A stretch of 64,000 bases of DNA, from assembly GCF_048403405.1 (NCBI RefSeq), contig NZ_CP183129.1. One strand, written 5' to 3'. The notes under the pieces were generated by a model. The model made no database searches. It worked only from the letters and a program-made list of their open reading frames with translations, and had not been told where the DNA came from. This document shows, one piece after another, positions 13,544-20,437 of the stretch. The position numbers and the translations under genes are program-made. Source of the stretch: Escherichia coli (lineage in GTDB: Bacteria; Pseudomonadota; Gammaproteobacteria; Enterobacterales; Enterobacteriaceae). Within the stretch, counting starts at the first letter, position 1, and every line of letters starts with the position of its first letter.

Positions 13544-14056
13544 ATGCAATTAGATGAACAACGCCTGCGCTTTCGTGACGCGATGGCCAGCCTGTCGGCA
13601 GCGGTAAATATTATCACCACCGAGGGCGACGCCGGACAATGCGGGATTACGGCAACGGCCGTCTGCTCGGTCACGGATACACCACCATCGCTGATGGTGT
13701 GCATTAACGCCAACAGTGCGATGAACCCGGTTTTTCAGGGCAACGGCAAGTTGTGCGTCAACGTCCTCAACCATGAGCAGGAACTGATGGCACGCCACTT
13801 CGCGGGCATGACGGGCATGGCGATGGAAGAGCGTTTTAGCCTCTCATGCTGGCAAAAAGGTCCGCTGGCGCAGCCGGTGCTGAAAGGTTCGCTGGCCAGT
13901 CTTGAAGGTGAGATCCGCGATGTGCAGGCAATTGGCACACATCTGGTGTATCTGGTGGAGATTAAAAACATCATCCTCAGTGCAGAAGGTCACGGACTTA
14001 TCTACTTTAAACGCCGTTTCCATCCGGTGATGCTGGAAATGGAAGCTGCGATTTAA
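13544..14056 (+). CDS. hpaC: 4-hydroxyphenylacetate 3-monooxygenase, NAD(P)H-flavin reductase component
   Basis: 170 aa flavin reductase directly downstream of hpaB. Confidence 0.9.
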   Translation: MQLDEQRLRFRDAMASLSAAVNIITTEGDAGQCGITATAVCSVTDTPPSLMVCINANSAMNPVFQGNGKLCVNVLNHEQELMARHFAGMTGMAMEERFSLSCWQKGPLAQPVLKGSLASLEGEIRDVQAIGTHLVYLVEIKNIILSAEGHGLIYFKRRFHPVMLEMEAAI

Positions 14057-14062
14057 GCTCCA

Positions 14063-14097
14063 GCCCCTTCACGCATTCGTCGAAGGGGCATTTTTAT
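14063..14097 (+). terminator. Rho-independent terminator after hpaC
   Basis: Stem gcccctTC / GAaggggc with a 11-nt loop, followed by TTTTTATT. Confidence 0.6.
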
Positions 14098-14141
14098 TGT
14101 GATCTCAATCACATATCCACCCGATGAATAATTCTTGCCCA

Positions 14142-14170
14142 ACCGCTCACCGCCATTCCTGACCGCTTAC
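14142..14170 (+). promoter_or_regulatory. Direct repeat ACCGCTCA-N13-ACCGCTTA, candidate BtsR (YehT) response-regulator site upstream of btsT
   Basis: Two copies of the ACC(G/A)CT(C/T)A motif with a 13-bp spacer, about 280 bp upstream of the btsT start; matches the LytTR-type BtsR site as I recall it. Confidence 0.5.
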
Positions 14171-14448
14171 GTCCCTAAAATAACCACTCAGTTATTTACC
14201 TTACTTTACGCGCGCGTAACTCTGGCAACATCACTGCAGGATAGCGGTCAATTTACCTCCTCAAACGCAACGCAAACCTAGAACGGCTTCGGCCTATGAT
14301 TAACAAATTACTCTATGGATTTTGGTTTGCAGGAAGGCAGCAAGTGAGTGAATCCCCGGGAGCTTACAACAGTAAGTGACAGGGGTGAACGAACGCAGCT
14401 GCCGCACCTGTAAGCCAAAAGACGACGAGTAAAATGCCAGGTTTTACT

Positions 14449-16599
14449 ATGGATACGAAAAAACTATTCAAGCACATACCCTGGGTGATTCTCGGAATCA
14501 TCGGTGCATTCTGCCTCGCGGTAGTTGCATTACGTCGGGGGGAGCACGTCAGCGCCCTGTGGATCGTGGTCGCCTCTGTGTCGGTGTATCTGGTGGCGTA
14601 TCGCTACTACAGTCTGTACATCGCCCAGAAGGTGATGAAACTCGACCCCACGCGCGCGACGCCTGCGGTTATTAACAACGACGGTCTGAACTACGTTCCG
14701 ACCAACCGTTACGTGTTGTTTGGTCACCACTTCGCCGCTATCGCCGGTGCTGGTCCGCTGGTCGGTCCGGTTCTCGCCGCACAGATGGGCTACCTGCCTG
14801 GCACGCTGTGGCTGCTGGCGGGGGTAGTGCTGGCCGGTGCGGTACAGGACTTTATGGTGCTGTTTATCTCCTCTCGCCGTAACGGCGCATCTCTCGGTGA
14901 GATGATCAAAGAAGAGATGGGACCAGTACCGGGGACTATCGCGCTGTTTGGCTGTTTCTTAATCATGATCATCATCCTCGCCGTTCTGGCGCTGATTGTG
15001 GTTAAAGCCCTGGCCGAAAGTCCGTGGGGTGTCTTCACCGTTTGCTCAACCGTACCAATTGCGCTGTTTATGGGTATCTACATGCGCTTTATCCGTCCGG
15101 GGCGTGTGGGTGAAGTCTCTGTCATTGGTATCGTGCTGCTGGTTGCCTCTATCTACTTCGGTGGCGTGATTGCTCACGATCCGTACTGGGGTCCGGCACT
15201 GACCTTTAAAGACACCACCATTACCTTCGCGCTGATTGGCTATGCGTTTGTTTCCGCGCTGCTGCCGGTGTGGCTGATCCTCGCACCACGCGACTATCTG
15301 GCAACCTTCCTGAAAATCGGCGTTATCGTCGGCCTGGCGCTGGGTATCGTGGTGCTGAACCCGGAACTGAAAATGCCTGCGATGACCCAGTACATTGACG
15401 GTACTGGCCCGCTGTGGAAAGGCGCTCTGTTCCCGTTCCTGTTCATCACCATCGCCTGTGGTGCGGTATCTGGCTTCCACGCACTGATCTCTTCCGGTAC
15501 GACGCCGAAACTGCTGGCTAACGAAACCGACGCGCGTTTCATTGGCTACGGCGCAATGCTGATGGAGTCCTTCGTGGCGATTATGGCGCTGGTTGCTGCG
15601 TCCATCATCGAACCGGGTCTTTACTTCGCGATGAACACCCCGCCTGCTGGCCTTGGCATCACCATGCCTAACCTGCATGAAATGGGTGGCGAGAACGCGC
15701 CGATCATCATGGCGCAGCTGAAAGACGTTACCGCACACGCGGCAGCGACCGTCAGCTCCTGGGGCTTCGTGATTTCGCCAGAGCAGATCCTGCAAACCGC
15801 GAAAGACATTGGTGAGCCTTCTGTCCTGAACCGTGCAGGTGGTGCGCCGACGCTGGCGGTAGGTATCGCTCACGTGTTCCACAAAGTGCTGCCGATGGCT
15901 GACATGGGCTTCTGGTATCACTTCGGTATTCTGTTCGAAGCCCTGTTCATCCTGACCGCGCTGGATGCGGGTACTCGTTCTGGCCGCTTTATGCTGCAAG
16001 ACCTGCTGGGTAACTTCATCCCGTTCCTGAAAAAAACCGACTCTCTGGTTGCTGGTATCATCGGTACTGCGGGCTGTGTGGGTCTGTGGGGCTACCTGCT
16101 GTATCAGGGCGTGGTCGATCCGCTGGGCGGCGTTAAGAGCCTGTGGCCGCTGTTCGGTATCTCCAACCAGATGCTGGCAGCCGTGGCGCTGGTACTGGGT
16201 ACCGTTGTGCTGATTAAGATGAAGCGCACCCAATACATCTGGGTAACTGTTGTTCCGGCTGTATGGCTGCTTATCTGCACCACCTGGGCGCTGGGTCTGA
16301 AACTGTTCAGTACCAACCCGCAGATGGAAGGCTTCTTCTACATGGCAAGCCAGTACAAAGAGAAGATTGCTAACGGTACTGACCTGACGGCGCAGCAGAT
16401 TGCCAACATGAACCACATCGTTGTGAACAACTACACCAACGCAGGCCTGAGTATTCTGTTCCTGATTGTGGTGTACAGCATCATCTTCTACGGTTTCAAA
16501 ACTTGGCTTGCGGTGCGTAACAGCGACAAACGTACTGACAAAGAAACACCGTACGTTCCAATCCCGGAAGGCGGCGTGAAGATCTCTTCGCACCACTAA
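14449..16599 (+). CDS. btsT: CstA-family pyruvate/H+ symporter (carbon starvation protein A paralogue)
   Basis: 716 aa from ATG 14449 (MDTKKLFKHIPWVILG...); the ORF track begins 5 codons earlier; polytopic membrane protein recognised as YjiY/BtsT. Confidence 0.9.
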   Translation: MDTKKLFKHIPWVILGIIGAFCLAVVALRRGEHVSALWIVVASVSVYLVAYRYYSLYIAQKVMKLDPTRATPAVINNDGLNYVPTNRYVLFGHHFAAIAGAGPLVGPVLAAQMGYLPGTLWLLAGVVLAGAVQDFMVLFISSRRNGASLGEMIKEEMGPVPGTIALFGCFLIMIIILAVLALIVVKALAESPWGVFTVCSTVPIALFMGIYMRFIRPGRVGEVSVIGIVLLVASIYFGGVIAHDPYWGPALTFKDTTITFALIGYAFVSALLPVWLILAPRDYLATFLKIGVIVGLALGIVVLNPELKMPAMTQYIDGTGPLWKGALFPFLFITIACGAVSGFHALISSGTTPKLLANETDARFIGYGAMLMESFVAIMALVAASIIEPGLYFAMNTPPAGLGITMPNLHEMGGENAPIIMAQLKDVTAHAAATVSSWGFVISPEQILQTAKDIGEPSVLNRAGGAPTLAVGIAHVFHKVLPMADMGFWYHFGILFEALFILTALDAGTRSGRFMLQDLLGNFIPFLKKTDSLVAGIIGTAGCVGLWGYLLYQGVVDPLGGVKSLWPLFGISNQMLAAVALVLGTVVLIKMKRTQYIWVTVVPAVWLLICTTWALGLKLFSTNPQMEGFFYMASQYKEKIANGTDLTAQQIANMNHIVVNNYTNAGLSILFLIVVYSIIFYGFKTWLAVRNSDKRTDKETPYVPIPEGGVKISSHH

Positions 16600-17896: not shown

Positions 17897-20437
17897 TTAT
17901 CTCTGAACGTGCAACACTTCCTGCGACTCCTTATGCGCCTCCACATCCTGCTTCGTTAACCAGAGCGACTTACGGCCAAAATTTTCGTACATTTTCAGCT
18001 GATCTTCATAGTGCTTATCAACTGTTCCATCGGGAGCAATAAACCCACTCTGACCGGGTGCGACCACATCCCAGGCAAGCACAGGACGATCGCTTGTCGT
18101 TGGTGAGAAAACAATCATATCGTTTTCTGTTCCACGGTTTTGATACTCCGCCTGATGACGCGTTTCTTCCGCTGCGGCCTGCGGTACACCAAAGAAATTA
18201 TTTGCCCGGAACGTTAAGGCCATTGCAGGTGTTTTCCAGTTACTCACATTATTGCCATAGCGTTTGGAAAGAGTCTCCCAGGTATCTTCCAGCGCAGCCA
18301 ACACAACCTCCTGCTGTGGTTTCCCAGCAAACAGATCAACCGCCTGTGGGATTGGTGATTTGTCTCCCTGCACCGCCTCATACAAAATTTTTGCTCCAAC
18401 ACTTATATTCAGCGAACCAGTTGGGCCGTCCTGGGTTGTTTCGTAGCCACTGGCGCTGTACCACTTATCAAATGGCATAGGTACGGCAGCCACTACGGTA
18501 CGCTTCAACATACTGGTCAGCCAAACGTTCAGGATGGCAGAGCCTGGCTGCTGCCAGGTTTTACCATCATCATTAAGCAAATTGATGCCATCCCAACGTG
18601 TTAATGTTTCTACCAACTGACGACGCGGATCGCTCTGTGTCAAACCAGATGTCGCTGCTTGCAGAGTAGGTAAAAAAAGCCTCAGGTTAAGATCCTGACG
18701 ACTGGTTTGGCGAATAACATCCCATGCCTGATCAGCAGTTAAGCGTGGCTTTTGCTCAAGCAGTCGGTCGATCTCCGTAACGCGATCTGCACCACCCCAC
18801 AAAAAGGCAAACAGATCTGAAGCGGGATAATCTTTTTGGGGAGAATTGTTCCAGTTAGCAATATATCCCGACTGGGGGTTATACACCTTAGGGTTCATTT
18901 CAAAAGGCAATAGCCCTTTCCAGTCCCATTTTCCCGTACCAGGAACGGGTAATCGCGGATCATGGCCTGATTGACGATCTGGATAAGCACCAGTATGAAC
19001 ATAACCAATATTGCCGTTTACATCAGCATAGTACCAGTTGATGGTCAGTGCTTGTTTCGCTGCCTGCTGTGTCCACTCCTGCCAATTTTTGGCCTTCATC
19101 TGATGAGTCCAGGCCAGCAAAGACGCCACCTCTTTACCATCCCATGCGCGGGATTTAGCGTAAGCCGTTTGTGTCGTCTGGTCAGTTTGGAGAATGTTGC
19201 CATGCACCGTACGCCAGACAGTAAAGGTCTCTGCCTGACCATTTTTCACCGTAATGGTTTCCTCACGGCTTAACATTTTCACCCACTTACCATTATGCAA
19301 GTAGTAGCCTGGTTTCTCTGCCGACAGCCGTTCAGCAAAAATATCGACATCATCGCCGAAACCTGCCGTTGATCCCCAGGAAATCACACCATTATGACCA
19401 AAAACCAGCCCAGGATAGGCAAATGGTGTATTGCCAGTGACATCATAACCAGCACCGTGCAGACCAATACCATAAGTATACGCAGGCGCATACCAGCCAA
19501 ACTGCGGACCATTTACCATGATTGCTTTCGCATCCTGGGCTTTGCTTTTGCCGATCACCCACATATTGCTGGTCGTTGGATACCCCGCCAGACCATTGGC
19601 ACCACCCTGTGCAAATTGTGCAGCAATAGTTTCCCGGTTCTTCCCTGCTGTTAACGCCAGCAGTGCGCCATCCGCCCCTTTTGCTGGTCGGTCAAGCATT
19701 GGTGCAGGTAAATCGTAGCGTGGCAACAGAGCTGCTGTTTGCGAGTTTTGCTGATTAAATTTAAGTGGGTAGTTACTCTCTTGTACGGCAATAGTGGTTG
19801 GCGCTGATGGGTTTACCAGCCATTTCAACTGATTAAATACCGCCATGCCTTGTGATACACCATATTTATCTTTTAAAGCCGTTAGCAGTGCCAGATTATC
19901 AATTTCGCTAGTGCTATCAGAGAAGCGGTTTGCCATGGTGCCCACAAATATCATCGCGACATCAAACGGTTCCCAGCGCTTAGGAGTAAAGCCAAATGTA
20001 TTAAACTGTTTTGGTAAGAGCGTCTCTGGATTGGTATTTACCTTATCAATCCAGGCATTCATTCCATCAGCGTAGCCTTGCAGAATGGACATATCCTCTG
20101 GGGAAAGGGCAGCAATTTGCGCCCGGATAGCATCCGGCCAGTAGTTACGACGGATATCTTTATCAAATTTCACAAAATCTTTGCCAAGCACTTCCGCGAC
20201 AGTCCCTTGAGTACTGCGACGTGCCATTTCCATCTGAAAAAGGCGATCTTGTGCTACTACATAGCCATAGCCATAAAATAGGTGCCATGTATCATTGGCA
20301 TAAATATGCGGCATGCCGTATTCATCGCGAACAATCTTTATCTCACTTGACGACTGCTCAGCCAGTGCAGGTAAGCTCCAATAATACATCAGGGAAGCAG
20401 TAACACAGTTCACGATCATACGATTTCTATTTTTCAT
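17897..20437 (-). CDS. pac: Penicillin G acylase precursor (Ntn hydrolase; signal peptide, alpha subunit, spacer, beta subunit)
   Basis: 846 aa; signal peptide; beta-subunit N-terminal nucleophile motif SNMWVIGKS; recognised as E. coli penicillin amidase. Confidence 0.9.

Follow-up and report, generated by a model that had tools for sequence, protein, structure and literature searches.

A predicted BtsR activating region of btsT with three phased octamer boxes and an upstream CRP site, beside the hpa cluster of an Escherichia coli genome

Direct copies of a short octamer lie between an hpa catabolic cluster and btsT (yjiY) in the E. coli DNA considered here, a stretch of 64,000 nucleotides that we call the window. 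The locus raises the question of which of these copies correspond to the binding site of the regulator BtsR (YehT), and whether the control region of btsT is still whole where the hpa cluster adjoins it. The hpa cluster sits between tsr and btsT, and the 651 bp around the repeat are 100% identical to strain TUM14771, whose annotated gene order is lgoT, tsr (minus strand), hpaR (minus strand), hpaGEDFHI, hpaX, hpaA, hpaBC, btsT, yjiX, yjiA and a penicillin G acylase gene. The two genes that border the repeat are:

13544–14056, + strand: hpaC, 4-hydroxyphenylacetate 3-monooxygenase reductase subunit, last gene of the hpa cluster (open reading frame; TUM14771 annotation)
14449–16599, + strand: btsT (yjiY), pyruvate/H+ symporter of 716 aa (open reading frame; annotation; orthologues with 90–100% identity in 80 species)

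The ATG at 14449 (MDTKK...) was taken as the start of btsT, and an in-frame ATG further upstream, at 14434, was rejected. From the hpaC stop codon at 14056 to this start the intergenic distance is 392 bp, which bears out the length of ~390 bp that an earlier note on this DNA gave for the btsT leader, but for part of this intergenic stretch the word ‘leader’ is not appropriate.

The earlier note described two copies of the octamer, separated by 13 bp, in a feature ending at 14170. Both copies are present, but a search with the pattern ACCRCTYA revealed a third one in the same orientation and in phase, which had been overlooked. The three boxes, together with a CRP-type site upstream and a conserved block downstream, are as follows:

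14098–14113, no strand assigned: CRP-type site TGTGATCTCAATCACA, a perfect TGTGA-N6-TCACA that has no second perfect match in the 64-kb window, conserved in 77 species; 44 bp from its start to that of box 1
14142–14149, + strand: box 1 (distal), ACCGCTCA, the first copy of the earlier note, outside the published two-repeat site
14162–14169, + strand: box 2, ACCGCTTA, the second copy of the earlier note; it is the upstream half-site of the direct repeat published for YehT/BtsR
14183–14190, + strand: box 3 (promoter-proximal), ACCACTCA, forming the downstream half-site of that published repeat
14221–14231, + strand: conserved block TCTGGCAACAT, consensus TCTGGCAnGAT, recognized by conservation and lying, in the window, 38 bp beyond the box 3 start

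The spacer between boxes 1 and 2 (14150–14161) is 12 bp rather than 13 bp, the second octamer ends at 14169, and it is box 2 and box 3 that are separated by 13 bp (14170–14182); the earlier observation of a repeat upstream of btsT is in this sense partly confirmed. The boxes follow each other at 20 and 21 bp from start to start, or about two helical turns, and so they lie on one face of the DNA. Moreover, measured between centres in the window, the CRP site, boxes 1, 2 and 3 and the block downstream, which resembles a −10 element, follow each other at 40, 20, 21 and 42 bp, each near a whole number of helical turns.

We then compared this layout across species by scanning for BtsT orthologues in one genome per species, which gave 80 loci with 90–100% protein identity from Escherichia, Salmonella, Citrobacter, Klebsiella, Raoultella, Kluyvera, Enterobacter, Kosakonia, Leclercia, Lelliottia, Pluralibacter, Trabulsiella, Pantoea, Erwinia, Mixta, Rahnella and others. 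The counts below refer to the ~77 of these 80 loci (Enterobacterales) that carried enough upstream DNA:

CRP site to box 1, start to start: 44 bp in 68 of 77 species
Box 1 to box 2, start to start: 20 bp in 72 of 77 species
Box 2 to box 3, start to start: 20 bp (53 species) or 21 bp (23 species), among 77
Box 3 start to the TGGCA of the TCTGGCAnGAT block: 40 bp (56 species) or 39 bp (18 species), 74 of 77 in all
CRP half-sites: 1.57 and 1.96 bits per column
Box 1: 1.63 bits per column; exact ACCRCTYA in 53 of 77, at most one mismatch in 76 of 77
Box 2: 1.80 bits per column; exact ACCRCTYA in 68 of 77
Box 3: 1.65 bits per column; exact ACCRCTYA in 54 of 77
Block downstream of box 3: 1.47 bits per column, against 0.7–0.8 in its flanks
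Spacers: 0.38, 0.47 and 0.62 bits per column

The alignment shows box 1 to be an additional distal box that is about as conserved as boxes 2 and 3. The 8-bp core is flanked by a conserved purine at −1 and by C at +1 and +2, which brings the unit to ~10–11 nt, and an extra, fourth copy occurs in phase in some species (upstream of box 1 in 10 and downstream of box 3 in 3). Behr et al. (2017, PMC5552118) stated that the BtsR motif is highly conserved across gamma-proteobacteria, and a yjiY reporter from E. coli was activated there in 6 of the 8 gamma-proteobacterial species tested. Box 1 departs from the motif, by a G at position 1 in K-12 and by a G at position 8 in many species of the Enterobacter group, and for this reason may be weaker than the other boxes or auxiliary to them. 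Conservation of this kind is evidence of constraint and does not by itself identify the bound protein.

The YehT site in the K-12 yjiY promoter was reportedly defined by Kraxenberger et al. in 2012 (J Bacteriol 194:4272) as ACC[G/A]CT[C/T]A-N13-ACC[G/A]CT[C/T]A. A passage of PMC4222967 gives the repeat spacer as 13 bp, and a table of PMC4847170 contains the sequence of a ‘yjiY YehT bs’ oligonucleotide, with which the arrangement in a K-12-type genome, GCCGCTCA-N12-ACCGCTTA-N13-ACCACTCA, is identical. In K-12, boxes 2 and 3 alone combine both degenerate positions (G/A and T/C) with a 13-bp spacer, so the published site corresponds to 14162–14190 in the window, and the pair of the earlier note sits one repeat too far upstream. 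Two copies of ACC[G/A]CT[C/T]A with a spacer of exactly 13 bp are indeed found at 14162–14169 and 14183–14190 and not within 14142–14169; aligned with the K-12 promoter fragment that carries the YehT site, to which they are homologous, boxes 2 and 3 lie upstream of the btsT orthologue and are unchanged, with a single substitution in their spacer. This sequence correspondence shows boxes 2 and 3 to match the published K-12 BtsR site, and by the same comparison the pair at 14142–14169 is one published half-site joined to a distal box outside the published definition. It is improbable that the ACCGCTCA/ACCGCTTA pair is itself the published two-repeat site: both octamers match ACCRCTYA, both boxes are strongly conserved and stand 20 bp apart in 72 of 77 species, and a 12-bp spacer falls inside the LytTR range, yet 13 bp is found between boxes 2 and 3 alone, the K-12 box 1 GCCGCTCA lies outside a motif that was defined in K-12, and the [G/A] degeneracy needs ACCACTCA, which is box 3. 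The earlier note therefore had the BtsR binding region of btsT right and the pair of boxes wrong; its exact pair is absent from the K-12 yjiY promoter, where box 1 begins with G, while the site formed by boxes 2 and 3 is present there, and its interpretation of the repeat as the BtsR operator of btsT is partly supported. This operator belongs to an already known system, and as a predicted functional assignment it holds in the window.

Far less probable still is a repeat that arose by chance or was left without function by the hpa insertion. The octamer alone is not enriched, with 10 matches against 6.1 expected in 128 kb (both strands of the window), as a chance origin would have it. Same-strand pairs 18–24 bp apart, on the other hand, number 2 against 0.0037 expected, there is 1 triple against 1.6e-6 expected, and a pair appeared in 0 of 300 first-order Markov simulations; a chance origin of the phased octamers is excluded. 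The array is also present with fixed spacing in genomes that lack hpa, such as K-12, and in ~77 species, and these conservation data already refute both chance and remnant. More serious, though still the less likely reading, is that BtsR binds boxes 2 and 3 only, and that box 1 is kept for another protein, for DNA bending between CRP and BtsR, or for contact with the alpha-CTD of RNA polymerase. The published definition has two repeats, which is the usual number for LytTR regulators, and box 1 deviates in K-12 and in ~30% of species; against this, box 1 keeps the same octamer, orientation and phase with equal information content, and the fourth in-phase copies, upstream in 10 species and downstream in 3, fit a repeated recognition unit.

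Taken together, we assign a probability of about 0.88 to the reading of the feature as an upstream activating region for the btsT (yjiY) promoter, in which three direct BtsR octamers ACCRCTYA would be combined with an upstream CRP site. BtsS is known from the literature to bind extracellular pyruvate, upon which btsT is activated by the LytTR regulator BtsR, whose only target it is. The perfect TGTGA-N6-TCACA at 14098–14113 is a predicted cAMP-CRP site. According to PMC7730263, deletion of crp abolishes btsT expression, and CRP dependence together with post-transcriptional repression of BtsT synthesis by CsrA is described in sections of PMC7730263 and PMC5431176. Whether the operator is a rigid module across the family, with three equally conserved boxes (four in some species) held in fixed helical phase between the CRP site and the core promoter, we consider an evenly balanced proposition on present alignments. 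If it is such a module, BtsR would act as a higher-order or sequentially loading oligomer, and the distal box would be a functional third site that was left out of the published definition because K-12 has G first. A distal third box would bear on how LytTR regulators assemble on DNA, and it could explain the reported importance of ‘flanking’ DNA, which, according to a part of PMC4847170 that cites the YehT and YpdB papers, matters for binding of regulators of this type. Full-text literature searches (the motif, the promoter sequence and a BtsR SELEX study), in whose scope the paper of Kraxenberger et al. did not fall, returned only the oligonucleotide table and general statements, and no description of the third box was found in them.

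On the promoter side, the block at 14221–14231 is probably the −10 region of the core promoter, with an extended −10-like form (TGn + CAnnAT). A scan of 14000–14500 gave no sigma-70 consensus promoter, and thus this assignment rests on conservation. If TGG-CAACAT (14223–14231) is the extended −10, transcription would start near 14238, the box centres would fall near −92, −72 and −52, and the CRP site would lie near −132. Blocks conserved across genera 3′ of box 3 (14195–14216 and 14221–14231) read ATTTACC, ACTTTACGCGCG and TCTGGCAnGAT and have no sigma-70 match; the conserved blocks downstream of box 3 presumably form an activator-dependent core promoter. A sigma-54 promoter, which calls for conserved GG at −24 and GC at −12 at a fixed distance and for an activator of the bEBP type, was considered at TGGCAACATCACTGCA (14224–14239) and rejected, because this sequence is not conserved: the −12 GC is lost in K-12 (TACA) and it is absent from other genera. 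Moreover, BtsR is a LytTR regulator and not an enhancer-binding protein. In the mechanism that we propose, BtsR would bind each of the three boxes, with cooperative loading or with sequential loading of the kind proposed for its paralogue YpdB (the ‘AB-BA’ scheme), and would form with CRP a stereospecific complex on one face of the DNA, which may then recruit RNA polymerase to a promoter that has no good −35 element.

The system of YpdB (PyrR) offers a close comparison for such an arrangement. In the sections of PMC4847170 that deal with the yhjX promoter, a direct repeat of GGCATTTCAT is described, with sites A and B and sequential ‘AB-BA’ binding. Like that of btsT, this is a LytS/LytTR pyruvate system, paralogous to it, with direct repeats of ~21-bp periodicity in front of a single transporter gene and with flanking DNA reported to influence activity; unlike btsT, it has another recognition sequence, and two sites are described. 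By eye, a third, degenerate copy (GTCATTCAT) can be seen in the yhjX YpdB bs oligonucleotide in Table 1 of PMC4847170, where it lies ~20 nt upstream of GGCATTTCAT (site A) and echoes the three-box layout of btsT. LytTR sites in general, as the same source puts it in a part concerned with the family, consist of two repeats of 9–11 nt, direct or inverted, 11–13 nt apart. At btsT the units of ~10–11 nt and the spacers of 12 and 13 bp agree with this architecture, and there are three units instead of two. Operators of AgrA (P2/P3), VirR (VirR boxes), ComE and PlnC/D share with btsT imperfect direct repeats of ~9 nt, spacers of 12–13 bp and an activator-dependent promoter; btsT differs from them in having three equally conserved units and a far-upstream CRP site, which would make up one rigid module.

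We next consider the hpa side of the promoter, where the following feature was found by folding, a pattern scan of 14000–14500 for terminators having been empty:

14063–14097, + strand: hpaC intrinsic terminator, hairpin 14063–14089 and U-run to 14097 (fold −18 kcal/mol, z −5.0)

The terminator abuts the CRP site, which begins at 14098, and forms the right edge of the hpa-specific DNA. The distance of ~85 bp that had been given between the end of the hpa island and the repeat is correct when counted from the hpaC stop codon, but hpa-specific DNA continues to ~45 bp before box 1. Because the terminator directly meets the CRP site, the btsT regulatory region is intact, as the earlier note held, and motifs and spacings are kept. 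The hpa cluster would thus have been placed directly upstream of the CRP site with the btsT control module left whole, and the main import of the locus is that the known control of btsT by BtsR and CRP is retained although an hpa catabolic cluster directly adjoins it. A terminator-like hairpin with the same GAAGGGG arm and a T-run also precedes the CRP site in the deaminase-island strain L002.

In comparison with the K-12 yjiY site, the gene, its orientation, boxes 2 and 3, the CRP site and the spacings are alike. The differences are in box 1 (ACCGCTCA in the window, GCCGCTCA in K-12, with G at position 1), in the one base of the 13-bp spacer, in the upstream neighbour (hpaC in the window, tsr in K-12), in an ERIC element that the window carries in the leader, and in the 48 bp between the CRP site and box 2 (14114–14161). 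These 48 bp form a haplotype that is strongly divergent from K-12 and has identical length, again with motifs and spacings kept. Across 14096–14235 the window-type haplotype is carried by ~2264 of 5426 complete E. coli genomes (~40%), and the hpaC-ERIC-btsT junction is present in ~2065. Within E. coli the flanks of box 1 belong to at least three unrelated haplotypes, all of them with the same CCGCTCA core, the same CRP half-sites and identical spacings. Such constancy amid variable flanks suggests that selection acts on three phased recognition units and not on two. Thus ~40% of complete E. coli genomes have a promoter-distal haplotype different from that of K-12, and most of them also have an ERIC in the btsT leader; each of these features could make expression differ from that of the K-12 reporter constructs on which the field relies. 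Beyond the retained control, the additions made here are small, namely the placement of the known site at 14162–14190 in this strain, a distal box conserved across the family, and the spread of the haplotype and the ERIC.

Several minor observations concern the same interval. The tsr-btsT intergenic region appears as an island hotspot with mosaic promoter haplotypes (~14057–14161 in the window; loci L001, L002, L084 and L085): in K-12 tsr is directly adjacent, in the window the hpa cluster intervenes, and strain 2017-02-2CC carries an amino-acid deaminase/N-acyl-D-amino-acid deacylase island. In FDAARGOS_1267 the promoter haplotype is recombinant and the breakpoint falls within box 1; N50 carries a third haplotype. 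On the other side of btsT-yjiX-yjiA, 3′ of it, a penicillin G acylase gene lies on the minus strand at ~18950–21490 of locus L083 (~17900–20440 in the window), according to the TUM14771 annotation. The pac gene is carried by lineages such as E. coli W.

Between the promoter and the coding sequence the leader contains a further repeat:

14308–14432, + strand: ERIC/IRU repeat in the btsT 5′ leader, ending 16 nt before the start codon and absent from K-12

ERIC/IRU elements are ~125 bp long, have a conserved central inverted repeat, GTGAATCCCCNGGAGCTTAC...GTAAGTGAC, and occur in transcribed intergenic regions. The core at 14348–14380 matches this pattern exactly, the element folds into a hairpin, and K-12-type genomes show a gap of ~123–125 bp at this place. 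No riboswitch or leader family was found by an Rfam scan of 13900–14600; its sub-threshold match to V_AS5 at 14311–14429 is explained by the ERIC element. E. albertii and Escherichia sp. E1V33 also carry an ERIC at this position, and Citrobacter portucalensis has a diverged copy there; this distribution suggests that the element entered long ago and was then lost repeatedly, or else that the site is a target hotspot. In the predicted fold of the leader, AAACCU (14274–14279) pairs with AGGUUU (14439–14444), which overlaps the weak Shine-Dalgarno sequence of btsT, and both arms are conserved in K-12 and Citrobacter. This helix may be relevant to the reported CsrA or translational control. The ERIC hairpin is nested within it and leaves it undisrupted (dG −73 kcal/mol, z −4.3).
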